The notes below the pieces were generated by a model, which was not told the DNA's origin, searched no databases, and saw only the letters and a list, made by a program, of their open reading frames with translations. A DNA stretch of 63,819 nucleotides, the filler included, from an uncultured archaeon (lineage in GTDB: Archaea; Iainarchaeota; Iainarchaeia; Iainarchaeales; 1-14-0-10-31-34): the NCBI GenBank assembly GCA_964442255.1. It is 9 parts of 9 records of this genome, joined end to end, with 100 filler letters (N's around TTAATTAATTAA, not from the genome) between each part and the next. Parts side by side here need not be neighbours in the genome. Positions count along the whole stretch, not along the records: positions 27,616 to 34,475 come from CAYTYC010000038.1; 8 more parts are not named here. One strand, written 5' to 3'. The first letter of the stretch is position 1. Every line of letters begins with the position of its first letter. The translations under genes and the position numbers were made by a program. This document shows positions 7,800 to 60,803 of this stretch, one piece after another.

Positions 7800-8951
7800 T
7801 TGCCCTCCTTTTTTTTCCCTTTTTCTTTTCTTTATTTTGTTTTCTCGCTTTTCCTTCTTGGGTTGGGAACATACACTGATTTTAAGTGGAGGTTTATTTC
7901 CAACAAACTGACTTACTCAATGATTTTAATCGGCCTGGCTGTTCACTTTGGGGAATCGGTTTTAACCCAAAACTTTTTCACAATAGGAATCGCGGCCGGG
8001 ATTACCGCCGCAACCTTCTTTTTTTCCTGGCTTTTATGGAAGCTTGGGGTTTGGGCAGGCGGGGACGTAAAGCTTTTCACCGCGCTAGCTGCACTGAATC
8101 CGTTTAACCTCGGGGTTTTAAGGGACCTGCTTGGCTTGAAGTTTTCCCTGCTTGCCTCTCTCTCCATCCCGATTTTTCCTTTAACGCTTTTCATTTTCAG
8201 CATTTTTGCAATGGTTCCCTACGGCTCGCTTTTAAGCGTCCACGGGCTGAAAAAAAAGCCGGAGCTAAGGAAAGAACTGTTCAAGGACTTTAAGGCAAAG
8301 CTGGTGAATTCCGTTGAATATTCGATGCTGCTTGTCGGGATTTATGCCCTGCTGGGAAACTTTTCGCTTGATTTTTGGCTTCAGCTGGTTGCCACACTTG
8401 CCGTAATTTTTGCTTACCGACTGGTTAAATTCAGGCTTAAGCTTGCGGTTCCAATTGCCTTGTTTTTTTACAGCCTTTACCTTAATGCAATTTTCTCGGT
8501 TTCTTACGCGGTTTACCTTTTCCTTTTCTTTTTCGCGGTTTACGCTGTTTTAAAGCTGTATTCCGTAAGCAAAAGCGAGGTTTTAAGGGAAGAAATTCCT
8601 GTGGAAAGGCTGGAGGAAGGCATGATTCCCGCGGAATCCCTGTACGAGGTTGAAGGAAAGGTGGTGAAGGCGGAAAAGCTGTCAATAGGAAAAATTATAA
8701 ACAACTTTAGAACTAATAGTCTTGACTCCCTTCAAAAACTGCTTTCCCCTCCGGGAAAGGCAATAGTGGATGCGCGGAAGGCGCGCGGGCTTTTGAAGGA
8801 AGAAATAGATGAATTGCGGAAACTGCAAAGCGAAGGCAAAATAAGGGAAAAAATTTGGGTGAAAAAAACCGCGCCAATGATTCCGGCGGTTTTAATCGCG
8901 TACATTATCTTGAATTTGGTTGGGGATGCGCTGTGGAATTTGCTGTTTTAG
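7800..8951 (+). CDS. prepilin peptidase (A24, EppA-like long form)
   Basis: YTDFKWRFISN and WAGGDVKL catalytic Asp motifs; LEEGMIP and C-terminal PMIPAVLIAY. Confidence 0.88.
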   Translation: MPSFFFPFSFLYFVFSLFLLGLGTYTDFKWRFISNKLTYSMILIGLAVHFGESVLTQNFFTIGIAAGITAATFFFSWLLWKLGVWAGGDVKLFTALAALNPFNLGVLRDLLGLKFSLLASLSIPIFPLTLFIFSIFAMVPYGSLLSVHGLKKKPELRKELFKDFKAKLVNSVEYSMLLVGIYALLGNFSLDFWLQLVATLAVIFAYRLVKFRLKLAVPIALFFYSLYLNAIFSVSYAVYLFLFFFAVYAVLKLYSVSKSEVLREEIPVERLEEGMIPAESLYEVEGKVVKAEKLSIGKIINNFRTNSLDSLQKLLSPPGKAIVDARKARGLLKEEIDELRKLQSEGKIREKIWVKKTAPMIPAVLIAYIILNLVGDALWNLLF

Positions 8952-9508
8952 AAAACTTTTTGGGAAACCTTGCAAAAGATTCTTTTGCGGGGCCTCGCAA
9001 ACCAGTTGGTTTGCAAGGAAGTTTTATCAAAAATAAGGTAAAACAAAAAGGGCAGATGAGCGTTGAGTTCATGCTGTTGATAGTGGTTTTTCTTTTCTAC
9101 ATTCAGGTGATAGTCCAGCCCACCTTGAATGACGCTGAAATGGGTATAGCGGACACAAAGGCGGTGGTGCAGACAAAGTTTGCCGCCCAAAAGCTTGCAA
9201 ACGCGATTGAATACATTGGCGCGTCAAACGGCCTGGCAAGGGAAACAGTCACAATCATTGCGCCGGAGGGCAGCACTATTTTGTGCGGGAACGACTCCCA
9301 GCAGGATTACCTGCAGTACTCTGTTGTTGTGGGCGGGGATTACTCTGAATGCGTTGCAGGGGCATGCACTGAAAACATCAACTTAAGCAAATCAATTGAT
9401 GTAAGGGACGCGGAATGCAGCAATTTCAGCGTGAATGCAGCAGACAGGGCGGTTTCACGGGAAGTTGAGGTAAAGAAAGAAAGTGATGGCAGTGTCACAA
9501 TTTCTTAA
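8855..9508 (+). CDS. pilin-like protein (true start probably downstream of the ORF start)
   Basis: KQKGQMSVEFMLLIVVF class III signal followed by a Cys-containing domain. Confidence 0.75.
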   Translation: MGEKNRANDSGGFNRVHYLEFGWGCAVEFAVLENFLGNLAKDSFAGPRKPVGLQGSFIKNKVKQKGQMSVEFMLLIVVFLFYIQVIVQPTLNDAEMGIADTKAVVQTKFAAQKLANAIEYIGASNGLARETVTIIAPEGSTILCGNDSQQDYLQYSVVVGGDYSECVAGACTENINLSKSIDVRDAECSNFSVNAADRAVSREVEVKKESDGSVTIS

Positions 9509-13476: not shown

Positions 13477-13728
13477 ATGAAACAAAAAACAAAGATTTCG
13501 TTAGCAGCACTCGCACTTTTTTTAGCCCTCTTTGCCTGGGCGCCTTGGCTTGATGACCAAGCCATTCACGACAAGGTCTTCAGGGAAAGGGCGCACATAG
13601 ACGGAACAATGGACAAACAAACCGGCAAGCTTATTTGCGATTACAACGTGATGTGGTTTCCGTTTGGCAGGCATGTTGCAAGCTGCGAAGGCGGCTACTT
13701 TGTGACTTTTTTCGGACAAACTCTCTAA
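13477..13728 (+). CDS. small membrane-anchored hypothetical protein
   Basis: N-terminal TM helix, two Cys. Confidence 0.6.
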   Translation: MKQKTKISLAALALFLALFAWAPWLDDQAIHDKVFRERAHIDGTMDKQTGKLICDYNVMWFPFGRHVASCEGGYFVTFFGQTL

Positions 13729-13835
13729 ACTGCGGCGGGTTAAAGCCCGCCGGTTTTTTTTTCCGTAAACGGCCTGATGGAAACAATTCATTTGCCCGTT
13801 GAAATGGGCGGGGTTCCCGGAAGGGGTTTCTAAAA
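13726..13835. repeat. ~110-bp dispersed structured repeat, copy A
   Basis: TAAACTGCGGCG...GGGTTTCTAAAA, homologous to 24742-24852 and 37337-37450. Confidence 0.85.
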
Positions 13836-13890
13836 ACCAAAAAAAAAAACTGTCTTTCATTTAAAAGAAAAAAAGACGCGCCGGCTGCAG

Positions 13891-17110: not shown

Positions 17111-17317
17111 GGGAAAAAGGAAATGAAAAAACGGAAATGCTGAAATGCAATAAGGAAATTCACAGGAAACCCCGGACATCAGCCGCTTCACAAAAGAAAT
17201 AAAAGGAAGGGCTGATGTAAAACCGCGGATGAAGACGGAAACAGTTTGCAGCCGCAAAAAAAAAATTTGCCGGATTAATTAAGCGCACAGCCTGAAAAAA
17301 AAATATGGCGGAAGGCC

Positions 17318-17669
17318 TCCCGCTTATCTCCTGAAATATTCTTCCCTGCACTTGTAAGAATTGTTGTGGAAAAGCTTGGCACTGCATCAGCCCGCTTCCC
17401 GCTTATCTCCTGAAATATTCTTCCCTGCACTTGTANNNNNNNNNNNNNNNNNNNNNNNNNNNNNNNNNNNNNNNNNNNNNNNNNNNNNNNNNNNNNNNNN
17501 NNNNNNNNNNNNNNNNNNNNNNNNNNNNNNNNNNNACTGCATCAGCCCGCTTCCCGCTTATCTCCTGAAATATTCTTCCCTGCACTTGTAAGAATTGTTG
17601 TGGAAAAGCTTGGCACTGCATCAGCCCGCTTCCCGCTTATCTCCTGAAATATTCTTCCCTGCACTTGTA
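17318..17669. repeat. 79-bp tandem repeat interrupted by the scaffold gap (copy number uncertain)
   Basis: TCCCGCTTATCTCCTG... starts at 17318, 17397, 17552 and 17631. Confidence 0.85.
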
Positions 17670-24491: not shown

Positions 24492-24741
24492 TCCTTTTTT
24501 GAGAAAGAGAAAAAAACAACACTATTCCGCCTTTGGACGGCAACGTTTTTCACTTAAGAAAAAAAATAGGGCCGTTCTGTTTTTTCTTTCTTCTAACCAA
24601 ATTGTGAAAGCAAAGGCTTTTAAAACAGGGGATTAAGCCCGTGTAAAAAAAAGCGCCTTACCTCTTAACCTTATTCTTTTAATCCACCAAAACGCCTTAA
24701 AAAAGGCGGAATATTATTTGAATTCTTCGTGTTACAAATTT

Positions 24742-24852
24742 TAAACTGCGGCGCGTTAAAAAATCCGCCGAATTTTTTTTCGTAAACGGCTTACTGGAAA
24801 CAATTCATTTGCCCATTAAAATGGGCGGGGTTCCCGGAAAGGGTTTCTAAAA
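24742..24852. repeat. ~110-bp dispersed structured repeat, copy B
   Basis: Homologous to 13726-13835. Confidence 0.85.
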
Positions 24853-25055
24853 TGCGCCATATTTAATAGTGCATAGTTAACTTTATAACCGGATAGGGTT
24901 ACTTTAAGTGTTTTGGCTTAAAAGGGGGCTTAAACAGGGTTTACTGCAAAAAAAGGAAAAAAACCCTTCCCTATATAAGGCTTGCTGCTGGAATATTGGT
25001 AAGCATTTAATTTAAATGCGATTTAGATAAGTAAAAAAAAGGTGAAAAAAAGTAC

Positions 25056-27275: not shown

Positions 27276-27301
27276 TTTTTTTTCAAATTAACCAGTAAGC
27301 A

Positions 27302-27350
27302 TGACGTCCTCCCCGCACTGAAGTGCGGGGTTTCCCAAATGTGGACGTCA
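27302..27350. mobile_element. IS605-end-like miniature element with terminal inverted repeats
   Basis: TGACGTCC-TCCCCGCACTGAAGTGCGGGGTTTCC-...-GGACGTCA. Confidence 0.6.
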
Positions 27351-27364
27351 ATTCCCCGCCAACA

Positions 27365-27515
27365 GCGAAGCCGCATAGCGTAAGCCACTTGCCGAAGGCA
27401 ATTTTTTGGCCAAACTTTTTTTTTCAAAAAGTTTGTTTTGATGAAACTTTTTTGAAAAGTTTCTCCGCCGAAGGCGGCCCTTTTTGATCAAACTTTTTGG
27501 AAAAAAGTTTGTTTT
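27365..27515. repeat. hairpin-module repeat (GCGAAGC, GCCGAAGGC, AAACTTTT..AAAAGTTT)
   Basis: Near-identical to 54225-54322. Confidence 0.8.
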
Positions 27516-27615: not shown

Positions 27616-27656
27616 CGAGATCTACACTCTTTCCCTACACGACGCTCTTCCGATCT
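27616..27656 (+). other. Illumina TruSeq adapter contamination
   Basis: CGAGATCTACACTCTTTCCCTACACGACGCTCTTCCGATCT. Confidence 0.98.
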
Positions 27657-28961
27657 GGAAATTTGGTGGTGACAAACCGCTGCGATTTGAGCTGCTGGTA
27701 CTGCTTTTTTTTCGCAAAAGAAGGCGACCCAATTTACGAGCCCTCCCTCGCGCAGATAAGGAAAATGCTGCGAAATTTAAGGAAAGAAAAGCCGATTGCA
27801 AGCAACGCAATCCAGCTGACGGGAGGGGAGCCGACTTTGCGCGAGGATTTAACGGAAATAATACGGGTTGCGAAAGAAGAAGGGTTTGACCACGTGCAAT
27901 TAAATACGGACGGAATAAACCTGGCATTCAAAGAAGGGCTGGTGAAAAAAGTCAGGAAAGCAGGGGTCAACACTTTGTACCTGAGCTTTGACGGAACAAC
28001 CCCAAAAACAAACCCAAAAAACCATTGGGAGGTGCCGTTTGTTTTTGAAAACTGCAGGAAAGCAAATATGGGCGCTGTCCTGGTGCCGACAGTGATAAAA
28101 GGAATCAATGACCACGATTTAGGCAACATACTGAACTTCGGGTTAAACCACCTGGACATTGTCAGGGCGGTCAACTTTCAGCCGGTTTCATTGGTGGGAA
28201 GGATGCCGAGAAAGGAAAGGGAAAAACGCAGGATAACAATTCCCGGAACACTGAAAAAAATAGAGGAACAGACCCGCGGGCTGATTGCAATGGAAGACTT
28301 TTACGTCATCCCCTGCATAACTCCGTTCACGGATTTTGTGGAGGCCTTCACCGGAAAACCGAAATACGATTTGTCCACGCACTTCGCGTGCGGGGCGGCA
28401 ACATACATTTACATGGACGGAAAAACCCCCACGCCAATCACAAGGTTCATTGACTTTGAGGGATTGAGGGAATTCCTTTCAGAAAAAACGCGTGAGCTAA
28501 AGGAAGGAAAGCACAAGGCATGGGTTGGAAGCAAAATGCTGTTCAAAATAGGAAGTTTTTTAGACAAAGAAAAGCAGCCAAAGGGCCTGAATTTGGCGAA
28601 CATTTTATTCAACACAATAGTTAAGCACAACTACAGGGCAATAGGGGAACTGCACCACAAGACGATGTTCGCTGGACTGATGCACTTCCAGGACAAATAC
28701 AATTATGATGTGGAACGCGTGGAAAGATGCGACATACACTATGTGATGCCTGACGGAAGAATAATTCCATTTTGTGCGTTCAACGTAATTCCGGAAATTT
28801 ACAGGGACAAGGTGCAGGCACAGTACAGCATTCCGCAGGAAGAGTGGAGCAAAAAAACAGGGAAAACCCTTTTGGAGGGAAAGTACAGGAGAAAAACAAA
28901 AGAACTTGAGTCCAGCCCAGTTTACGGGAAAATTTATGATACGGTGAATTACTTTGAATGA
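27657..28961 (+). CDS. radical SAM enzyme, tetraether synthase (Tes/GDGT-MAS, MJ0619 family)-like; 5'-truncated
   Basis: TNRCDLSCWYCFF, IYEPS, QLTGGEPT, NFQPVSLVGR, HFACG, MHFQD, RCDIHY, IPFCAFN. Confidence 0.8.
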   Translation, partial: GNLVVTNRCDLSCWYCFFFAKEGDPIYEPSLAQIRKMLRNLRKEKPIASNAIQLTGGEPTLREDLTEIIRVAKEEGFDHVQLNTDGINLAFKEGLVKKVRKAGVNTLYLSFDGTTPKTNPKNHWEVPFVFENCRKANMGAVLVPTVIKGINDHDLGNILNFGLNHLDIVRAVNFQPVSLVGRMPRKEREKRRITIPGTLKKIEEQTRGLIAMEDFYVIPCITPFTDFVEAFTGKPKYDLSTHFACGAATYIYMDGKTPTPITRFIDFEGLREFLSEKTRELKEGKHKAWVGSKMLFKIGSFLDKEKQPKGLNLANILFNTIVKHNYRAIGELHHKTMFAGLMHFQDKYNYDVERVERCDIHYVMPDGRIIPFCAFNVIPEIYRDKVQAQYSIPQEEWSKKTGKTLLEGKYRRKTKELESSPVYGKIYDTVNYFE

Positions 28962-29220
28962 GCCCTTCAGGGAAATACAGAAAAAAGAGTACTCCGTCAG
29001 GGGATTGAAGTCAGAGAACGATGCAGCATTCCTCCAGTACAGGCTGTCGCTTCTTGATTCGGTCATTCGGGCGCATGTCGGCTTTGGGGAAGGAAAAGCC
29101 TTTGTGCTTTTTTCAGGCGAAGAAAAAGAAATCAAAAAAATCCTCGGGGAAAATGCAAAAGAGTTAAAAGGAGTTAAAACACAGTATTCTGATCTGGTGG
29201 AAAAAAGTTTCAGCAAATGA
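28954..29220 (+). CDS. hypothetical protein
   Basis: Operon-like spacing. Confidence 0.5.
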   Translation: MNEPFREIQKKEYSVRGLKSENDAAFLQYRLSLLDSVIRAHVGFGEGKAFVLFSGEEKEIKKILGENAKELKGVKTQYSDLVEKSFSK

Positions 29221-29232
29221 GGTGAAAAAAAA

Positions 29233-29673
29233 GTGGAGGAATCAATCCAGTTTGTGGCGAACTGCAGGGGATGGGTTTCAGTCAGGAAATTAAAGGTGAC
29301 GGAAGCTACTGACCCCCGCACAGTGCTGGAGTTTCTGGCGTCCCTTAACACGGGAATTGACCGCAAGGTGGAGGAGTATTTGGGAAAAATCGTGGATTTG
29401 GCTCCGCTGGATTCCGCATTAACTGATGTTTTGGGCGACTCCGGAAAAACTCCCGGGGAGGCGATAAAAGCGGTGAACAGTTTGCAGGTGAACAAAGCAG
29501 TGAATGAATTGGCTGAAGGGCTGGAGAAGCTGCAGAAAGGGGAAAAAAAAGAGGTCTCCGAGTTTTTGAAGGTTTACGCAATGCGGAAAGCGCTGAAGGA
29601 AAAGAAGATTAGGGTGGATTACTCGGAAATAGCGGTTCCGGGAATGAAAAAAGTGAAGAAAACAAAGGTTTAA
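29233..29673 (+). CDS. archaeal conserved protein (DUF2666-like)
   Basis: IQFVANCRGWVSVRKL...EFLASL; GAGGTGA SD. Confidence 0.6.
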   Translation: MEESIQFVANCRGWVSVRKLKVTEATDPRTVLEFLASLNTGIDRKVEEYLGKIVDLAPLDSALTDVLGDSGKTPGEAIKAVNSLQVNKAVNELAEGLEKLQKGEKKEVSEFLKVYAMRKALKEKKIRVDYSEIAVPGMKKVKKTKV

Positions 29674-29698
29674 ATTTTCCTTAAACTTATTTTTTTGG

Positions 29699-29968
29699 AT
29701 GGCAAAAGAAATATTCAAGGAAAGGGTTGGCCCCGGAAACCTGCGCGTCGGGGTAAAGGCGGGAAAAAAAATTCCCCCAAGACGGGCAATTGAATTCAAC
29801 TTGTACAGCAAATTCCACGGGCACGAGTACGTGATAAGGGGCAAAGAACTGTTTGAATTAAAGGGCGGAAGGCTTTCCATTGTGGAGGACGCGGCAGACG
29901 CGAGAATTGCGTTAACTAACGCTAAATGGAGTCAAAAGTCTTCCCTGGACAAAACCAAAATGAAGTGA
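29699..29968 (+). CDS. hypothetical protein
   Basis: ATG ORF in a co-oriented run. Confidence 0.5.
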   Translation: MAKEIFKERVGPGNLRVGVKAGKKIPPRRAIEFNLYSKFHGHEYVIRGKELFELKGGRLSIVEDAADARIALTNAKWSQKSSLDKTKMK

Positions 29969-29975
29969 AAATTGA

Positions 29976-30836
29976 ATGGCTTCGGAAATTGAACTGGTTC
30001 AATTTTTTCAGGGCTTTTCCAGCCCGGCGCTGGATTATTTGATGATTGCGTTAACCCAATTGGGAAACCCTTTCTTCTGGCTTCTGCTTACGGCCGTGGT
30101 TTACTGGAGCGGAAGGGACAGGGAGGCGTTGGGTTTTGCCAATTTGGTTTTGTTTTCTTCCATGGCTGTTGGAGTTTTAAAGCATTCGTTTGGGAAACTC
30201 CGGCCTCCTCTGGTTTCGGATTCGGTGAGGGCGGTTATTCCAATTGAATTCGGCCCTTTGGCTTTTCCTTCAGGGCATGCAACGCTTGCGGGGGCTTTTT
30301 TCGGGTATTTTTTGAAATACAAGAAACTTTTCTGGAGCCTTGGTTTGGGTGCAGGGGTTTTGGTTGTTGCAGTGAGCAGGGTTTATTTGGGAATGCATTT
30401 TGTTTCCGATGTTTTGGCGGGGGCTGTTTTGGGGTTGGTTATTGGAATGCTGAACATTAAATTGAGTGAACGGATCGCGAAAGCAAAACTGAAGCTGAGC
30501 TTGTGGAAAGAGGAACTGCTGGTTTTCGGGCTGATTGCCGCGAGCATTTTGCTTTTGATTTACTACAGGGAAAGCGCTTTGCCTGCCGCCTTCATCGGGT
30601 TTTACGCGGGTTTTTTCACCTTAAAGGAAGTAGAGTACCCGCATAAGTGCGAGAGAGGAAAAAGCCTTTGGGTTAAGGAAGGGCTTGGCTTGGCGGGAAT
30701 TGGGGCACTGCTTTTGGCTTACTTTTTTTCGGGAAGCTTTTTGCTTGAATTCGCCTTAATGGGCTTGGCCGGATTATGGATTTCCTTCATTTGGCCCCTT
30801 ATTTTTGACCATTCCCTTAAAGGCAACTGCTTTTAA
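29976..30836 (+). CDS. PAP2 family membrane phosphatase
   Basis: KHSFGKLRP, FPSGH, SRVYLGMHFVSD. Confidence 0.9.
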   Translation: MASEIELVQFFQGFSSPALDYLMIALTQLGNPFFWLLLTAVVYWSGRDREALGFANLVLFSSMAVGVLKHSFGKLRPPLVSDSVRAVIPIEFGPLAFPSGHATLAGAFFGYFLKYKKLFWSLGLGAGVLVVAVSRVYLGMHFVSDVLAGAVLGLVIGMLNIKLSERIAKAKLKLSLWKEELLVFGLIAASILLLIYYRESALPAAFIGFYAGFFTLKEVEYPHKCERGKSLWVKEGLGLAGIGALLLAYFFSGSFLLEFALMGLAGLWISFIWPLIFDHSLKGNCF

Positions 30837-30860
30837 ACCTTAAACGCACCAAATATTAAG

Positions 30861-30949
30861 GCTGTCATTTTCCGAGCGAAAGCGAGGAAATAACTACTAC
30901 AAAACGCAGTGAGGTAGTAGGGCACGCATATAAACTGGGCGTGACAGTT
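30861..30949 (+). repeat. REP-like multi-hairpin element upstream of the tRNA-Tyr leader
   Basis: CTGTCA/TGACAG closing stem; GAGCGAAAGCGAG and AACGCAGTGA loops. Confidence 0.55.
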
Positions 30950-31207
30950 TCCCGCCTTAGCATAGCAAACTTTTTCAAAAAAAGTTTGAACAAAAAAAGC
31001 TTTTTAAGAAACCTTGTAAATGCTTTGCGTCGTTAAAAAACCTTTCGGTTTTTTGACGCGTCGGAAACCTGCAGGTTTCCAACGTTACGAGGCCCCGCAA
31101 ACCTTAAAGTTTGCAAGGAAGCTTTAGCAAAAAAGCAAAAACCGGCTAACGCCGAAAACTTTTAGAAAAAGTTTGATCAAAATATGTGCTAAGGCAATGT
31201 ACTGCAA
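30950..31207 (+). other. tRNA-Tyr 5' leader: copy of the tRNA 5' end, hairpin element, antisense copy
   Basis: TCCCGCCTTAGCATAG at 30950-30965 equals 31208-31223; TGTGCTAAGGC at 31185-31195; the core is homologous to the tRNA-Pro intron. Confidence 0.8.
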
Positions 31208-31208
31208 T

Positions 31209-31428
31209 CCCGCCTTAGCATAGTAGCCAATGCGTCCGGCTGTAGTTGTTTCAACCGGTTTTTTTTTGAACCGGTGTGCTTTGCTTCAGGGCAAAGCGGG
31301 CGCATAAACCCGAAAGCGGCGGTGAGCGAGGCGAAAGCCGAGCCAGTGCCATACGCCAGTATGGCACGTTCCACTGCCGGGAACAGCCGGCAACCGGAAG
31401 ATCCCCGGTGCAAATCCGGGAGGCGGGA
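31209..31428 (+). tRNA. tRNA-Tyr(GTA) with a 147-nt intron at 37/38 (31246-31392)
   Basis: Acceptor CCCGCCT/AGGCGGG-A, D stem GCAT/ATGC, anticodon stem TCCGG/CCGGA, loop CTGTAG|A, T arm CCCGG-TGCAAAT-CCGGG. Confidence 0.85.
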
Positions 31429-31480
31429 TTTAGGCTTTTGAACGATAGTTTTATAATAACACTTTGTGTTACGCTATGTT

Positions 31481-31777
31481 ATGGAGTATGTTAGTTTCAA
31501 ATTAGATAAGCCTGTTTTGAAGCAGATAGAGAAGGGGATTAAGGAGTTCCATTACAGCACCAAATCAGACTTTTTAAGAGACGCTGTAAGGACAAAACTG
31601 CAGCAGCTTGAAGAGGACAGGGCCAAAAAGAAGGCCTGGGACGCGCTGTTCGCAGCAAGAGGCGTATTGAAGGGACAGGGAAAGGCAAAAACAGACGAAG
31701 AATTTAGGAAAATTACTGAGAAAGCAGCAGAGGAATACATTGAAAAATTGGAAAAGAAATTTTCTGCTCAAAAGTGA
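31481..31777 (+). CDS. ribbon-helix-helix (CopG-like) putative antitoxin
   Basis: VSFKLDK...YSTKSDFLRDAVR. Confidence 0.8.
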   Translation: MEYVSFKLDKPVLKQIEKGIKEFHYSTKSDFLRDAVRTKLQQLEEDRAKKKAWDALFAARGVLKGQGKAKTDEEFRKITEKAAEEYIEKLEKKFSAQK

Positions 31778-32187
31778 ATGTCTTCAGGCATTGCAATTTT
31801 TACAATATCTGCCAAAGCATCAAAGTGCCTGTCTCTTGTAACCATTACTGCTTTGTTGTCTCTCGCTAACACAGCATGCAGAACATCCTTAAAATGCGTT
31901 TCTTTGACAGAAGAAGAAATTTTTCGTGCCTGAGAAATTTGTTCATCAGAGAGAAAAACCTTAACAAGAATATCCTCAAATGGAGAAAAAAGCCCAGCAA
32001 TTCTTTCATCAGAATAATCAGATTTTAGCTCTTCCACAACCAAATCAGAAAACAAAACCTTACAATTGTTCTTTTGACAATTTTTCAAGAATTGGAAAGC
32101 AAAATCCCCCAAAGGCCTGATACTGTCTCTTCTGTCTTCAAAATAGTCCCGCCAGATTGCAGTATCCAGGTAAAACTTTTGCACCAT
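31768..32187 (-). CDS. PIN-domain (VapC-like) toxin
   Basis: YLDTAIW, VVEEL, DVLHAVLA, VTRDRHF. Confidence 0.87.
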   Translation of the reverse strand: MVQKFYLDTAIWRDYFEDRRDSIRPLGDFAFQFLKNCQKNNCKVLFSDLVVEELKSDYSDERIAGLFSPFEDILVKVFLSDEQISQARKISSSVKETHFKDVLHAVLARDNKAVMVTRDRHFDALADIVKIAMPEDIHF

Positions 32188-32366
32188 AGTAACAACTATT
32201 GCTTAACATTATTTAAAACAAATTAACCAAAACAAGGTAAGCAATGGCTGAAATTGTCGGGAGTTGCACTCACAGATGGAGGTTGGGAGGCGGGAATTTT
32301 TTTTTCAATAAAAAGGAATGCCGGATGGCAGCATATTTATAAATTGTTTACATTAAGATATATTGT

Positions 32367-32903
32367 ATGACAAAGTTGCTTGTTATTAGCGACAGCATTT
32401 CTTTGATTATTGGAACTAAAGCAGGCTTGCTTGATGCAATATGTGAAGAATTCCAAGTTGAAATTCCTGAAAAGGTTTTTGAAGAAACGGTTTTAGCTGG
32501 AAAAGAATTGCAAAAAATTGATGCACTGAAGATTGAGGATGCAATTAAAGAAAATAGGATAGCGGTTAAAAAAACAAAGCCGTTGAAAGAAGGCAAAACA
32601 GCCAATTGGCTCAGCCAACTTAATTTGGATACGGGGAAAATGGAAGCAATAAAGCTCTACATTCAGACAAATGCAAAATTAATGTTAATTGATGACCGGC
32701 AAGCAATAAACGCAGCAAAGTTGCTTGAAATAAACTGGGCAACAATTCCAGACATTATCGTTGAATTTGCGATAAGGAAAAAAATCTCAAGAGAAATTGC
32801 ATTAGAAGCATTAAAAATCGCTCAAAGAGAAGGAAGATACAAAATAGAGTTTGTTCTCAAAGCATTTAATAAAATTGAAAAAATAAAAGGAGGGAAAAAA
32901 TGA
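32367..32903 (+). CDS. PIN-like (DUF3368-type) toxin; lacks the usual GE motif (reads GK)
   Basis: VISDSISLI, IPEKVFEE, LDTGKMEAI, LIDDRQA. Confidence 0.75.
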   Translation: MTKLLVISDSISLIIGTKAGLLDAICEEFQVEIPEKVFEETVLAGKELQKIDALKIEDAIKENRIAVKKTKPLKEGKTANWLSQLNLDTGKMEAIKLYIQTNAKLMLIDDRQAINAAKLLEINWATIPDIIVEFAIRKKISREIALEALKIAQREGRYKIEFVLKAFNKIEKIKGGKK

Positions 32904-33214
32904 AAACAAAACTCGTTTCCGCAAGGTTTGCAAAGAAGGATACTGCATTAATAGAAGAGGTTGCCAGAGAAGAAAAAACAGACAAAACCACGGCGTTAAA
33001 AAGAATATTTGTACTCGGCGCAAAACAATACAAACTAGATAAAGCGATAAAAGATTACCAAGAAGGAAAAATAAGCATAGGGAAAGCAGCAGAAAACGCC
33101 GAAATAAGCTTGTGGGAGATAATGGATGAACTAAAAGAAAGAAACATAGTGAACCCATTAGGCGAAGAAGAATTCAAGGAAGGATTGAAAAACCTTCAAA
33201 AGGTCTGGAAATGA
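32900..33214 (+). CDS. UPF0175 family antitoxin
   Basis: AIKDYQEGKISIGKAAENAEISLWE. Confidence 0.87.
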   Translation: MKTKLVSARFAKKDTALIEEVAREEKTDKTTALKRIFVLGAKQYKLDKAIKDYQEGKISIGKAAENAEISLWEIMDELKERNIVNPLGEEEFKEGLKNLQKVWK

Positions 33215-33503
33215 AAAAAACCACAAACCACTAACCATTCACTACCAACCGCAAATCCAAGCAGCTCCGGGAGGCGGGATGCCCCCGCAAGAAGCGGTTT
33301 CAGGGGCTCCTTGAACTCCGCGGAAAAGGAAAAAACACCACTCACTCCATAAAACAACAGCCCTGAAAAAAAACATGTTTTAGGCACTACAAACCCTGTC
33401 CGGATAGCCTTTAAAATGCCCGGCAAATGTCCGGAAAGGAGGCACGGGCAATTTTTGCAGATGGCGCAAATTCGGTAAACCCCCAAATTCACCCACAAAT
33501 ATT

Positions 33504-33758
33504 TCAACTTTTTCTTTTTGTTAACAGCTTAGGCAAATCATCAGCGGTTAAACCACAATCCCTTAGAATGCCTTTAAGCGTTCCAACTGGCAGCATTTTC
33601 TTGGTGTGGCAGGGAATGGTAGTGTACCTCAGCTCTCCCTTATAAACGCCTTTCAGCTGAATGTGTGAACCCTTTTGCCTTACAGGAATTATGCCGATTT
33701 TAGACAAGACTTTAACTAATTCTTTTGCCTTGATAGCAGGCAATTTCCTTTCCACCAT
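33504..33758 (-). CDS. hicA: HicA family toxin
   Basis: LPAIKAKELVKVL...RQKGSH...IPCH...GTLKGILRD. Confidence 0.9.
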   Translation of the reverse strand: MVERKLPAIKAKELVKVLSKIGIIPVRQKGSHIQLKGVYKGELRYTTIPCHTKKMLPVGTLKGILRDCGLTADDLPKLLTKRKS

Positions 33759-33767
33759 AAAAATAAG

Positions 33768-34028
33768 CTACAAGGCCTCAACTTGGATTTGACTTTTACT
33801 TTCTGCGGAATCAGTGGGAAGATCAACTACCAAAGTTAATATGCCCGAAACTGCCTGTTTAATCTTTTGTTCCCCCTCCACATTCAGCAAATAAGCTTCC
33901 TGAAAGTTTCTTAAAGCTTCTTTAAATGTTTTTCCGTAAGTGTTAATATGGTAGTCGTCATTCCTTATCAGGACATGTTTTCCTTCTTTCCAGACCTTAA
34001 TCTTTACTATCTGCGGGACCATAGACAT
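33768..34028 (-). CDS. HicB-like antitoxin
   Basis: TYGKTFKEALRNFQEA; adjacent to hicA. Confidence 0.75.
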   Translation of the reverse strand: MSMVPQIVKIKVWKEGKHVLIRNDDYHINTYGKTFKEALRNFQEAYLLNVEGEQKIKQAVSGILTLVVDLPTDSAESKSQIQVEAL

Positions 34029-34367
34029 TCACCCAAACACTAGCCTGCTTTTCCCATCTACTGAAAATTTAATGGAATTTCCAACCTGATACTTGTCTTT
34101 TACAGCCTTCCATTCATCTTCCGAAAAATAAATAATCGCCTTAAATTCCTCAGGCTCCACAGGCGGCACTCCCGGCACAATAGGAACCGACAAATTTTTT
34201 GGGCTTTTTGATAATTTAACCGGATGTTTAAAAGTCAAGTCAACACGAACAGCTGAACTGCCGTCCGGGCGAGTCGCCCTAATGACATTCTTAACGGCTA
34301 CAAGGTCAGCCGAACCCACTTTTTCACCTAAGAATTGTATGCCCAAAACAGTTTTAAAATCATGCAT
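34029..34367 (-). CDS. hypothetical protein (OB-fold/arcadin-1-like appearance)
   Basis: Co-oriented with hicBA; IYFSEDEW...YQVG. Confidence 0.5.
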   Translation of the reverse strand: MHDFKTVLGIQFLGEKVGSADLVAVKNVIRATRPDGSSAVRVDLTFKHPVKLSKSPKNLSVPIVPGVPPVEPEEFKAIIYFSEDEWKAVKDKYQVGNSIKFSVDGKSRLVFG

Positions 34368-34420
34368 TATTTACAAAAAGCCCCCAATGCCCCTGAAGAA
34401 GAGAAAAAATATCGCTCACT

Positions 34421-34475
34421 CCTTGAACTACGGTGGGCTGAAGCCCACCGAGTCTTTACTTGAACTGTAGCAAGG
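34421..34475. mobile_element. IS200/IS605-end-like hairpin element, at contig end
   Basis: Identical to 20188-20242. Confidence 0.6.
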
Positions 34476-37208: not shown

Positions 37209-37336
37209 TTAAAAAAACCCGGGGTTTTTTAAAGGCTTAAAATGCGGCAGCATTTTAAATCCATTTTTTGATGCCTTAAAGGAAGCTCCTGGGAAAAGGA
37301 TTTAAAGGAATTCATTTGGTTCCCAAGCCTTTTCCC

Positions 37337-37450
37337 TAAACTGCGGCGGGTTAAAGCATGCCGGTTTTTTTTTCCCGTAAACGGCCTGCAAAAACCCTGA
37401 TTAATCCGCGCATTGAAAAAGGCGGGATTCCCGGAAAGGGGTTTCTAAAA
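37337..37450. repeat. ~110-bp dispersed structured repeat, copy C (diverged)
   Basis: Same ends and hairpins as copies A and B. Confidence 0.8.
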
Positions 37451-37599
37451 TACTTTGTGCCCCAAACCCCTAACCTGCCGCCCGGCGGCGGAATGCCCTT
37501 TGGCTGGCGCTGTTTTCTTTTAAGTTTCATAACCTTCCCCTTAATTCATTTTCCGGATTCATTCTATTTAAAACCATTACTTTGGGAAAAATTTATTTG

Positions 37600-57004: not shown

Positions 57005-57077
57005 TAGCCCCGAGGAGATTCGAACTCCTGTCAAGAGGTCCAGAACCTCTTATGCTTGGCCGCTACACTACGGGGCT
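57005..57077 (-). tRNA. tRNA-Gln(CTG), no intron
   Basis: AGCCCCG/CGGGGCT-A acceptor, AGAGG-TTCTGGA-CCTCT anticodon arm, GTTCGAATC. Confidence 0.95.
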
Positions 57078-57137
57078 GTGCTCCGCAGCCTGTTTTTTGG
57101 TGAACCTTTTTTTAAAAGGTTCCCAGGCTACGGGGCT
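57078..57137 (-). other. tRNA-Gln 5' leader: copy of the tRNA 5' end, hairpin, antisense copy
   Basis: AGCCCCGTAG duplicated (57128-57137); GCCCCGTAGCCTG pairs with CAGGCTGCGGAGC. Confidence 0.75.
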
Positions 57138-60541: not shown

Positions 60542-60803
60542 TGGGGCCCCGGGGATTTGAACCCCGGTCTACACCACGTTGGAACGCTTTTTTCTTTTCC
60601 CACGGCTTTTCGCCGAAGGCGAGTTTTTTGATAAAACTTTTCCTTGCAAACCCAAAGGTTTGCGAGGCTCCGCAACGTTGGAAACCTGCGGGTTTCCGAC
60701 GCGTCGAAAAACCGAAGGTTTTTCAACGAAGCTTTGCTTTTACAAGGTTTCCAAAAAGTTTTTCCCCAAGGTGCAATGCTAGTCCAGGCTACACCAAGGC
60801 CCC
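60542..60803 (-). tRNA. tRNA-Pro(GGG) with a 187-nt BHB intron (60577-60763)
   Basis: GGGGCCT/GGGCCCC-A acceptor, GCACC/GGTGT anticodon stem, loop TTGGGG|T, BHB helix TTGG/CCAA with 3-nt bulges. Confidence 0.9.

Follow-up and report, generated by a model that had tools for sequence, protein, structure and literature searches.

Near-alike intron sequences are shared among different tRNA genes of Thermoproteales, by a mechanism called unknown in the account of Fujishima et al. (2010, Mol Biol Evol) that PMC4090602 gives. In Nanoarchaeum equitans, small RNAs of the C/D box type (sRNAs) occur after tRNAs, in a tRNA intron and beside split genes, and the treatment of these units by Randau (2012, PMC3491384) suspects mobility. 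From Caldiarchaeum, Sugahara et al. (2012, PMC3293823) describe an intact tRNA gene that is separated by an insert from a partial copy of its own end, an arrangement proposed there as a route to intron gain and gene splitting. Bacterial repetitive extragenic palindromes (REPs) and the related BIME and REPIN sequences are mobilised by RAYT transposases of the Y1 type and are often transcribed, as outlined in PMC3116915 and PMC2817692. How archaeal tRNA introns arrive is still presented as open in the introductory terms of a 2026 preprint on Asgard archaea (10.64898/2026.10.13.758758). Here, we analysed a tRNA-Tyr(GUA) locus of an archaeon of the Iainarchaeota in which the intron and the upstream region hold small hairpin repeats that recur at other tRNA genes. 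The locus lies in a 63.8-kb stretch of DNA, hereafter the window, which consists of short contigs of one metagenome-assembled genome (MAG; G000, 1.28 Mb in 51 contigs, 93.8% complete) separated by runs of N; its own contig, C38, covers window positions 27616–34475.

We read the locus, with a probability of roughly 0.55, as an ancient intron-bearing tRNA-Tyr gene; small hairpin repeats without coding capacity, arranged in two layers and spreading at the DNA level, would have colonised its flanks and the parts that are discarded. The old layer, found throughout the family, consists of GC-rich tetraloop hairpin cassettes and of A/T hairpins ~20 nt long that are followed by a GATCAAAA-like linker; tRNA introns and flanks, spacers of the rRNA operon and intergenic arrays are assembled from these units. 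The young layer, specific to G000, is F3, a ~110-nt element resembling a transposable element of the miniature inverted-repeat type (MITE), which lands in the loops of older hairpins. Such repeats may be harmless passengers that persist mainly where they cost nothing, namely in untranslated spacers, in DNA that precedes the transcription start, and in segments that RNase P, RNase Z or the splicing endonuclease removes. The repeats with their nesting and enrichment, the lineage-specific insertions and the duplicated gene ends are observations; spread as DNA, passenger status and the agent of movement are inferences.

The comparison covered 40 related genomes, eight of them from the same family as G000 (nine family genomes including G000, 81–99% complete) and 32 from other families. 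Repeat families were derived by BLAST of positions 30800–31460 against G000 and by self-comparison of the genome, in which 61,700 of 1,277,402 bases have another copy. ARAGORN in intron mode predicted 42 tRNA genes in G000, 23 of which contain an intron; 17 of these introns reach 76 nt or more. Of the three tRNA genes in the window, default ARAGORN and Rfam found one, tRNA-Gln alone, but all three (Tyr, Pro(GGG) and Gln(CUG)) are associated with repeat modules, as intron mode and the repeat matches together confirmed for a claim of an earlier note on this DNA. The sharing of repeats that the same note had described, among the Tyr intron and upstream region, the Pro intron and trailer, the Gln upstream region and a free intergenic copy, was also recovered (Table 1).

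The tRNA-Tyr gene and the mosaic upstream of it

ARAGORN places the gene at 31208–31429 and labels it Asp(GTC), with an intron at 36/37. Because of the C1-G72 pair with A73, the anticodon loop CUGUAGA and exons conserved in relatives, we re-read it as tRNA-Tyr(GUA) at 31209–31428, with the 147-nt intron at 37/38; C1-G72 plus A73 is what we take to be the identity rule for tRNA-Tyr. The predicted minimum free energy (MFE) fold of the precursor keeps the cloverleaf and gives the intron a long, hairpin-rich arm, and by hand reading the central helix of the bulge-helix-bulge (BHB) comprises only 3 bp, with bulges of 1 nt and 2 nt. Among the relatives, 29 Tyr loci were fetched and both exons were recovered in 16; the intron stands at the same place in 16/16, in genes of 114–292 nt, and these introns are hairpin-rich and mutually unrelated in sequence. 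Judged from this comparison, the Tyr intron is ancestral, and the modules did not create it at this locus. The reading as a split or permuted tRNA-Tyr was rejected, since its two exons are contiguous as well as conserved.

The 3' part of the intron is a GC-rich cassette that touches the 3' splice site and is the reverse complement of the trailer cassette TTGCCGGC-loop-CCGGCAG... found after other tRNAs. It recurs in this reversed sense in the 3' trailer of tRNA-Pro(GGG) and beside the Trp, Val, Arg, Gly and Ile tRNAs; upstream of tRNA-Ile(UAU), as in the Tyr intron, the cassette is the reverse complement of the form that consists of TTTG plus a hairpin.

Upstream of the gene, a displaced copy of the tRNA 5' end is followed by a mosaic of 242 nt (30966–31207) in which one A/T module, a second module split by F3, a short GC hairpin and a third module with its linker succeed each other (Table 1). 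The mosaic continues with an inverted copy of tRNA positions 4–12 and 12 further nt, after which the intact gene begins. The displaced fragment and the inverted copy pair with each other in the MFE fold, so they bracket the block; for 30855–31208, the fold z-score is -6.9. At this locus, F3, the A/T modules and the GC cassette are repeated in the genome, whereas the segment at 30861–30949, which falls within the range given in the earlier note, is not a repeat. That segment is probably an ancestral region upstream of tRNA-Tyr; its CTACTAC/GTAGTAG hairpin aligns with one in G003.

In G002 and G003, both of the same family, the 242-nt block is absent and the upstream region joins tRNA-Tyr directly (...GCAGTTT|CCCGCC). 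This junction matches the one at the upstream partial copy in G000 (...ACAGTTT|CCCGCC), and the junction at the functional copy does not. Therefore, the mosaic and the second copy of the first 15 nt are, as far as these junctions can be read, a lineage-specific insertion that left the gene whole.

One relative offers a related observation. In G003 (L016), a ~60-nt module (hairpin GTACTACT..AGTAGTAC plus ACTGGCGTAAACCGACAGTGGCGG) is common to the tRNA-Tyr upstream region and the 3' part of the intron; therefore, exchange between upstream region and intron occurs in relatives too, with other sequences. For G000, local alignment of the Tyr upstream region with the intron scored 26 against a shuffle 95th percentile of 25, which we counted as no evidence of homology.

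Another important question is whether the shared blocks could be chimeric joins made through repeats in a fragmented MAG. Such an artefact, which we hold to be very improbable, would be favoured by a genome in 51 contigs, many of which end in arrays. Contig C38 also starts with an adapter-like sequence (27616–27656), which we take to be an Illumina adapter or primer-like sequence and which suggests untrimmed adapter contamination of that end. A search for runs covering the Tyr locus returned two DNA runs from one study and no RNA run; the contigs of run X1 break within F3, at 31038–31078. However, these independent contigs bridge 30479–31038 and 31078–31354, from where they run on to 33600; alignment of the run contigs with the locus revealed no joint of interest, although one at 31393/31358 steps back 36. 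In addition, tRNA-Tyr sequence lies on both sides of F3, and a like architecture occurs in nearly closed relatives. The upstream PAP2 gene adjoins tRNA-Tyr in several relatives as well, and this conserved neighbourhood argues against a chimeric join.

Repeat families and their placement at stable-RNA genes

The repeats do not make up one module set, as was thought at first, but several families that differ in age and distribution. The A/T hairpin, AAACTTTT-loop-AAAAGTTT followed by the linker, matches a relaxed pattern 95 times in G000 versus 0–1 times in five shuffles, and it often stands in tandem arrays with GC hairpins of the UUCG or GNRA type, where many contigs end. In the family comparison, it was counted 74 times in G000 and 12–48 times in each of the eight other family genomes; the 32 genomes of other families mostly contain 0–6, with two exceptions of 20 and 9, and a reversed control pattern gave 0–1 matches in the family genomes and 0–3 overall. 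The module with its linker, taken from a G000 intron, yields tens of matches per family genome at 80–97% identity. Both the A/T modules and the GC cassettes are found in both orientations, and their organisation as short palindromic repeats of many copies combined into mosaics is that of REP and BIME sequences. No module has a match in Rfam, either at the gathering threshold or at E values up to 1. Two other candidates were rejected: CRISPR for the arrays, which have a period of ~30–45 nt and lack spacers, and an Rfam HgcC match at 27289–27372, which at 22 bits falls far under the cut-off.

A module in the loop of a C/D box sRNA, reported earlier, did not reappear. A pattern scan (C box RUGAUGA, D box CUGA, terminal stem) returned no such sRNA with a module, its single match looking coding, and Rfam gave none at E up to 1.

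The ~140-nt F3 block (30994–31135) occurs in 12 copies in G000 at 82–100% identity, one of them in the tRNA-Pro(GGG) intron; five copies lie in stable-RNA units, six in protein-gene spacers and one at a contig end. Every full-length copy stands between the two halves of a hairpin, and an unsplit module with the sequence of module 2 stands upstream in the C17 row of the six-copy alignment. The core has terminal inverted repeats (CCTTGTAAA...TTTGCAAGG), as MITEs do. Subfamily F3b lies within a CAGCC...GGCTG hairpin and has the ends CCATG...CATGG, versus CCTTG...CAAGG, the two ends having changed in step; short variants lack the two inner hairpins. This second host hairpin and the short variants indicate that nesting happened more than once. 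No copy of F3 was found in the 40 relatives, including the eight of the same family, and the exact 31-nt core had 0 matches in viral_contigs and metagenome_contigs, a search that diverged copies would escape.

The intron of tRNA-Pro(GGG) contains, in order, an A/T hairpin split by the F3 core (F3 match at 60624–60763), a linker and a UUCG hairpin, and the gene fits a canonical BHB by hand reading (UUGG pairs with CCAA; bulges GG|A and CG|U). Its orthologues in G004, G005 and G006 have introns of 83, 78 and 101 nt without F3, and those of G004 and G006 hold an intact A/T hairpin 1 nt past the splice site. The G006 intron starts CAAACTTTTT..AAAAAGTTTGATCAAAA; the G000 intron reads AAAAACTTTTTGG, F3 core, AAAAGTTTTATCAAAAAA. 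As the hairpin is intact in G004 and G006 and split in G000, F3 entered the loop of a pre-existing module, and by alignment the site is an orthologous pair of empty and filled states. The same alignment indicates that the Pro(GGG) intron is ancestral. The comparison with the tRNAs of relatives that had been called for in the earlier note thus bears out the expected difference in module content, but not a recent origin of the Tyr and Pro(GGG) introns themselves.

Module numbers at other tRNAs differ among the relatives. In one genus, the Ser(GCT) gene lacks an intron in G006, has an intron of one module (47 nt) in G005, and holds two modules in each of G008 (79 nt) and G001 (74 nt). The Ser(TGA) intron of 76 nt in G000 is lacking in G007; Leu(CAA) has an intron of 55–116 nt in five genomes and none in G005; and Gln(UUG) has one of 170 nt in G000 and none in G004. 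Therefore, introns may grow, shrink, appear and vanish as modules are gained and lost. The module-type introns inspected all have a hairpin that starts 1–3 nt past the 5' splice site, where it could act as the outer helix of the BHB, and the 3' tail is complementary to the anticodon loop of the host tRNA; intron-to-intron matches between different tRNAs reach 80–98% identity.

These data raise a key question: could the A/T modules be what gives rise to new tRNA introns in this DPANN family today? We regard this as possible but doubtful. Equally tentative is its premise that a hairpin landing 1–3 nt past position 37 would supply the outer helix. Extension of a palindrome by template switching would then copy the anticodon-loop sequence in inverted form and thereby create the BHB central helix, so that a spliceable intron would arise in one or two DNA-level steps; blocks with duplicated tRNA ends (see below) would be intermediates for D-loop or T-loop introns and split tRNA genes. 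If this is true, the family would be a live, testable model of how archaeal tRNA introns arrive.

Three observations concern introns of other stable-RNA genes. An element of two hairpins, marked by the conserved motifs GAGATACGTC and TATAAATAT, is present in at least eight tRNA introns and in several 3' trailers (contigs C1, C4, C15, C17, C28 and C34) and absent from the Tyr locus; all its copies are in sense orientation, with compensatory changes among them in both stems, and a TATA-like motif lies 15–35 nt 5' of the 3' exon. A tRNA-Lys(UUU) gene missed by ARAGORN (G000:C3:57345-57520; T-arm and partial Rfam match) has an apparent, non-canonical D-loop intron of ~100 nt. The 16S rRNA match at G000:C17:1481-3155 spans 1675 nt versus a model of 1478 positions, the ~200 nt extra being an insertion or intron.

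To quantify placement, we called a base repeated when it has at least two other copies in G000. By this measure, 1128/2566 bases of tRNA introns are repeated (44%), compared with 21.4% of tRNA 3' flanks, 12.3% of tRNA 5' flanks, 13183/140662 intergenic bases (9.4%) and 0.9% of coding bases, the coding mask being a crude open reading frame (ORF) filter from which 18 short ORFs overlapping tRNAs or repeats were dropped. Counted without tRNA exons and without a separate ~120-nt repeat, 27 of 42 tRNA-holding spacers contain at least 25 nt of repeat versus 102 of 727 others (Fisher p ~1e-12); without contig-end spacers, the counts are 22/37 versus 54/651. Repeat density is 4012/19704 (20.4%) in tRNA-holding spacers, which are long partly because of repeats, and 4742/115648 (4.1%) in the others. 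The earlier note had named, as grounds for refutation, modules that are no commoner at RNA genes than in intergenic DNA; the ~5-fold higher density in tRNA-holding spacers speaks against that outcome. More than half of the repeat DNA is not beside any tRNA gene. Of the 29 hairpins in G001 (10 contigs, 96% complete), five are in tRNA introns and 11 are at most 90 nt from a tRNA end, 16 in total, by a hand count that intron-bearing tRNAs missed by Rfam would raise. The ~120-nt intergenic repeat mentioned above (TTTAGAAACCCC...CCGCAGTTTA) has ~35 copies in the genome and no tRNA link.

Table 1 Features of the tRNA-Tyr locus and of other repeat-bearing sites in the window
Feature	Positions	Strand	Evidence or remark
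Three hairpins closed by CTGTCA/TGACAG, non-repeated	30861–30949	+	Only 16-nt chance-level matches in genome
Displaced 16-nt copy of tRNA-Tyr 5' end (1 nt upstream plus positions 1–15)	30950–30965	+	Exact direct repeat of 31208–31223
A/T hairpin module 1 (CAAACTTTTTC AAAAAAAGTTTG), touching displaced tRNA fragment	30966–30988		Near-copies in genome exceed 25, many of them at contig ends
A/T hairpin module 2, left arm, split by F3 core	30994–31005		Six-copy alignment with flanks
F3 core, ~110 nt, ends CCTTGTAAA...TTTGCAAGG	31006–31118	+	12 copies in G000
A/T hairpin module 2, right arm and linker (AAGCTTTAGCAAAAAAG)	31119–31135		Copy alignment
Short GC hairpin (CCGGCTAACGCCG)	31142–31154		Sequence
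A/T hairpin module 3 and linker GATCAAAATATG	31155–31186		Linker at -35..-23 from mature 5' end
Inverted copy TGCTAAGGC of tRNA positions 4–12, 9 nt	31187–31195	+	Pairs with displaced fragment in MFE fold
tRNA-Tyr(GUA) 5' exon, positions 1–37	31209–31245	+	ARAGORN, fold; conserved in relatives
tRNA-Tyr intron, canonical 37/38 site, 147 nt, hairpin chain	31246–31392	+	Fold z-score -6.2
GC-rich hairpin cassette, 3' part of Tyr intron, touching 3' splice site	31325–31392	-	BLAST
tRNA-Tyr 3' exon, position 38 to discriminator A	31393–31428	+	ARAGORN, fold, relatives
Second copy of last 15 nt around tRNA-Tyr 3' end	33266–33280	+	Repeat of 31415–31429
Free intergenic short F3 variant in split A/T hairpin, just 3' of coding region	8951–9025	+	
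tRNA-Pro(GGG), 187-nt intron at 60577–60763	60542–60803	-	ARAGORN intron mode
tRNA-Pro(GGG) 3' trailer, tandem GC-rich hairpin cassettes to contig end	60197–60541	-	
tRNA-Gln(CUG), no intron	57005–57077	-	ARAGORN
Block upstream of tRNA-Gln(CUG)	57078–57137	-	A/T hairpin at 57102–57123
Array at contig end, composed of A/T hairpin modules, linkers and GC hairpins with tetraloops	27301–27515		
Second array of A/T modules, linkers and tetraloop GC hairpins, at contig end	54156–54351		
~120-nt intergenic repeat, three copies	13723–13847, 24739–24855, 37330–37455		

Function, duplicated ends and routes of spread

Several observations weigh against colonisation by passive repeats. The sequence of the A/T stem is conserved across genera, which resembles function. 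Six hairpins in G001 end 2–5 nt before the mature tRNA 5' end, and TTTG plus a hairpin opens at least 11 of the 42 trailers in G000. The module linker occupies -35..-25 in Tyr, Gln, Val(CAC) and Val(TAC), which is the position of the TATA-like box. F3 has a cloverleaf-like multi-branch fold (43 predicted pairs, four of them with compensatory change, and U-G pairs) and is sense to transcription in 7/7 informative copies; its junctions fall within A-runs of the hairpin loop, where no unambiguous target-site duplication is readable, and no other G000 locus with its end motifs was found that could be an autonomous partner. Searches of G000 and the family identified no mobilising enzyme for the repeats, and no empty-site allele at the Tyr locus was seen in the two DNA runs. 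Of the 95 A/T hairpins, 43 are at contig ends, where their context is undefined; the differences in module number among genomes pool gains and losses, as they are not placed on a tree; and the tRNA and gene annotation (ARAGORN plus ORF mask) is crude.

Part of this evidence would fit modules that are functional components of stable-RNA transcription units and that spread by duplication because they are useful, an account that we consider rather unlikely. The linker with its A/T hairpin would be a portable promoter (TATA-like at ~-30, with a fixed spacer), the hairpin would double as BHB outer helix, and processing would be guided or protected by the GC cassettes, acting as structured trailers or leaders. 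The stem conservation, the G001 hairpins, the trailer openings, the F3 sense bias with its compensatory changes, and the short distance of hairpins from the 5' splice site would all follow. The same holds for the arrays that stand 5' of the 16S gene in the rRNA operon, where a copy of F3 also occupies the 16S-tRNA-Ala spacer, and for the coincidence of the linker with the AT-rich peak of G000 tRNA genes at -40..-26. At the Tyr gene, the linker of module 3 lies where other tRNA genes have their TATA-like box, and we infer a possible promoter role for it from this position. However, the module at a given tRNA can be absent in a congener and is therefore dispensable; most G000 tRNA genes have an ordinary TTTAAA-like box and no module; and many copies stand in protein-gene spacers of every orientation class (A/T hairpins: 9 tandem, 6 divergent, 5 convergent), with GC cassettes in both orientations. 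The absence of F3 from the 40 relatives also speaks against function, and hairpins acting as terminators would be hard to reconcile with the T-runs inside intron modules. A terminator role for the A/T hairpins was rejected, as there is no bias toward gene 3' ends.

The position of the linker also bears on RNA processing. Linkers at the TATA-like position imply that upstream modules may be promoter-side DNA rather than leader RNA. The suggestion that normal processing removes or tolerates every module therefore stands in part: the genes are intact, and the genome encodes a single EndA of 171 aa (PF01974; C19, 96.7 bits), RtcB (C5, 528.8 bits) and RNase P RNA, but upstream modules may precede the transcription start.

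A direct copy of the gene's own end (at least 10 nt, at most 450 nt away) accompanies 8 of the 42 tRNA genes. The 5' end is copied upstream of Tyr and both Gln genes, and the 3' end downstream of Leu-UAA, Phe, Leu-GAG, Ser-UGA and Ala-CGC; copies on the wrong side number 0/42, and cross-tRNA controls gave 9/3436. The duplications are 10–24 nt long, a module block of 50–340 nt separates the two copies, and the displaced fragment always touches a hairpin. In the block upstream of tRNA-Gln(CUG), the displaced 10-nt copy of the 5' end (57128–57137) is joined by an inverted copy, GGCTGCGG (57083–57090), and the second Gln gene, on contig C1, has the same block upstream. The 3' duplicates span the T-loop exactly to the discriminator, without CCA. 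The duplicate junction GTTTC-TTCGAATC... resembles the array junction GTTTC-TTTTGATC, a hint of microhomology recombination between T-loop and linker. Leu(GAG) is a plain threefold tandem duplication, and orphan 3' fragments of tRNA-Ser adjoin hairpins at two contig ends. When a tRNA gene receives a block within one of its ends, the 10–24-nt duplication would keep one copy of the gene intact; each such locus could give a tRNA either from the intact copy or by removal of a D-loop or T-loop 'intron'.

Direct repeats of 10–24 nt that end at a tRNA terminus are also the classic signature of integration into tRNA genes. Could the blocks with duplicated ends be decayed integrations of plasmids or viruses, with the repeats as attL and attR and the modules as leftovers? 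A Caldiarchaeum 5' tRNA fragment located 1.8 kb from its gene is so explained in PMC3293823, and the 3' end of tRNA-Tyr is likewise repeated 1.8 kb downstream, around toxin-antitoxin-like genes. Even so, we judge this origin improbable for the blocks. They are only 50–340 nt long and carry modules common to tRNAs with different repeat sequences; introns, rRNA spacers and protein-gene spacers hold the modules too, and there no such repeats accompany them; and Leu(GAG) is a tandem duplication. G000 has one tyrosine recombinase gene (PF00589; contig C3, 289 aa), which we take from its size to be XerA-like and which is not near any block.

The 1.8-kb islet 3' of tRNA-Tyr (31415–33280) is an observation in its own right. 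It has 15-nt direct repeats of the tRNA 3' end on both sides and contains RHH_1 (31466–31777), a weak PIN match (31768–32187, minus strand), UPF0175 (32900–33214) and a gene for a 178-aa protein without family; a HicA gene follows at 33504–33758. It looks like a small integrated toxin-antitoxin islet.

Another possibility is movement through RNA: modules would be released by RNase P, RNase Z and the splicing endonuclease, in the last case as intron circles, and would re-enter at processing sites. EndA and RtcB circularise introns in other archaea, and both are encoded here. Block boundaries coincide with processing sites, given the extent of the 3' duplicates from T-loop to discriminator; cassettes touch the mature 5' end, the 3' splice site or the RNase Z site; and F3 and the two-hairpin intron element are always sense. 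We nevertheless consider this route quite improbable. No RVT_1 reverse transcriptase was found in the 93.8%-complete genome, and the duplicated 3' ends are without CCA; relative to the host tRNA, neither palindromic modules nor GC cassettes keep to one orientation; copies stand in protein-gene spacers; and F3 inserts in hairpin loops, not at processing sites. Moreover, selection alone accounts for survival only outside mature tRNA sequence. The absence of RVT_1, the two orientations, nesting in loops and the duplicated ends are evidence for spread at the DNA level. Spread through circular intron RNAs, whose release the earlier note had raised as a possibility, thus has no support and runs against these DNA-type signatures; its wider idea of a mobile non-coding family that exploits RNA processing holds in so far as the modular hairpins are multi-copy and prefer discarded parts, but not for spread at the RNA level.

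What, then, might have moved the repeats as DNA? We favour hairpin-driven template switching or microhomology recombination over a dedicated transposase, as no co-distributed enzyme was found, and such events would account for the host sequence that recurs, inverted, where blocks end on their far side. G000 contains a single TnpA–TnpB pair of the IS605 type and, besides it, one Y1 transposase gene that stands alone. Y1 transposases (PF01797) are present in 3 of the 9 family genomes (81–99% complete), versus hairpins in all 9; therefore, the defining partner of REP/RAYT systems is missing. The lone Y1 (HUH) gene itself (165 aa; L039:2095-2592, G000:C9) has HVH and YI..Q motifs and its own, different GC hairpins around it, and its relatives are patchy (7/41 genomes including G000), some being broken by stop codons. 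It was rejected as a RAYT-like mobiliser on account of this patchiness and of the other hairpins that flank it.

Comparison with described systems

The repeats are small palindromic and MITE-like sequences with an unusual niche in stable-RNA genes, and not the new kind of system first suspected, as their behaviour is REP-, BIME- or MITE-like and the sharing of intron sequences has already been described for Thermoproteales. In the literature searched, no published description of such repeats in tRNA genes of Iainarchaeota or other DPANN archaea was found. What is added here is the two-layer structure, an orthologous empty and filled site, variation of module number within one genus, and the duplicated ends. 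Intron content becomes traceable to repeat units that also exist outside introns, and intron growth, perhaps gain, becomes testable in one small clade by comparative genomics and RNA mapping. In practice, the repeats hide tRNA genes from standard tools, as with two of the three in the window, fragment assemblies, and can mimic processing stems or promoters in annotation. One further repeat occurs in the window: at 17315–17669, on contig C33, at least four spaced copies of a 42-nt repeat lie beside a run of N.

With the Thermoproteales introns, the G000 introns share the occurrence of one sequence in several tRNA isotypes, for which the account in PMC4090602 infers DNA-level, BHB-constrained spread. 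They differ in that the modules are not confined to introns and also populate flanks, rRNA spacers and protein-gene spacers, and in that the introns are nested-hairpin mosaics of 76–259 nt in a DPANN host with a single 171-aa EndA. The N. equitans sRNAs, in the portrayal of PMC3491384, are likewise small structured units at tRNAs that rely on tRNA processing enzymes, whereas no C/D boxes were found here, and the units are simple hairpins known from DNA alone. The insert between tRNA-end copies described in PMC3293823 for Caldiarchaeum is 1.8 kb long and has a recombinase; here, mostly hairpin repeats of 50–340 nt without any gene are found in that position.

The likeness to bacterial REP, BIME and REPIN sequences, as characterised in PMC3116915 and PMC2817692, lies in GC- or AT-rich palindromes of tens to hundreds of copies that form extragenic mosaics in either orientation. 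The difference is the sparse Y1 distribution relative to the hairpins, the strong preference for tRNA and rRNA units and for introns, and the archaeal host.

Insertion sequences such as IS1397 and members of the IS110 family target REP palindromes, and F3 similarly inserts in the loop or centre of an older palindrome; those insertion sequences are autonomous and have a transposase, whereas F3 is non-coding and no partner was found for it. With the prokaryotic MITEs presented in PMC10969869, F3 shares its length of ~110 nt, its non-coding nature, its multiple genome-specific copies and short inverted ends that covary between subfamilies. It stands apart from them in that no unambiguous target-site duplication is readable at its junctions and no autonomous partner was found in G000, and in its loop targeting, conserved multi-branch fold and sense bias.

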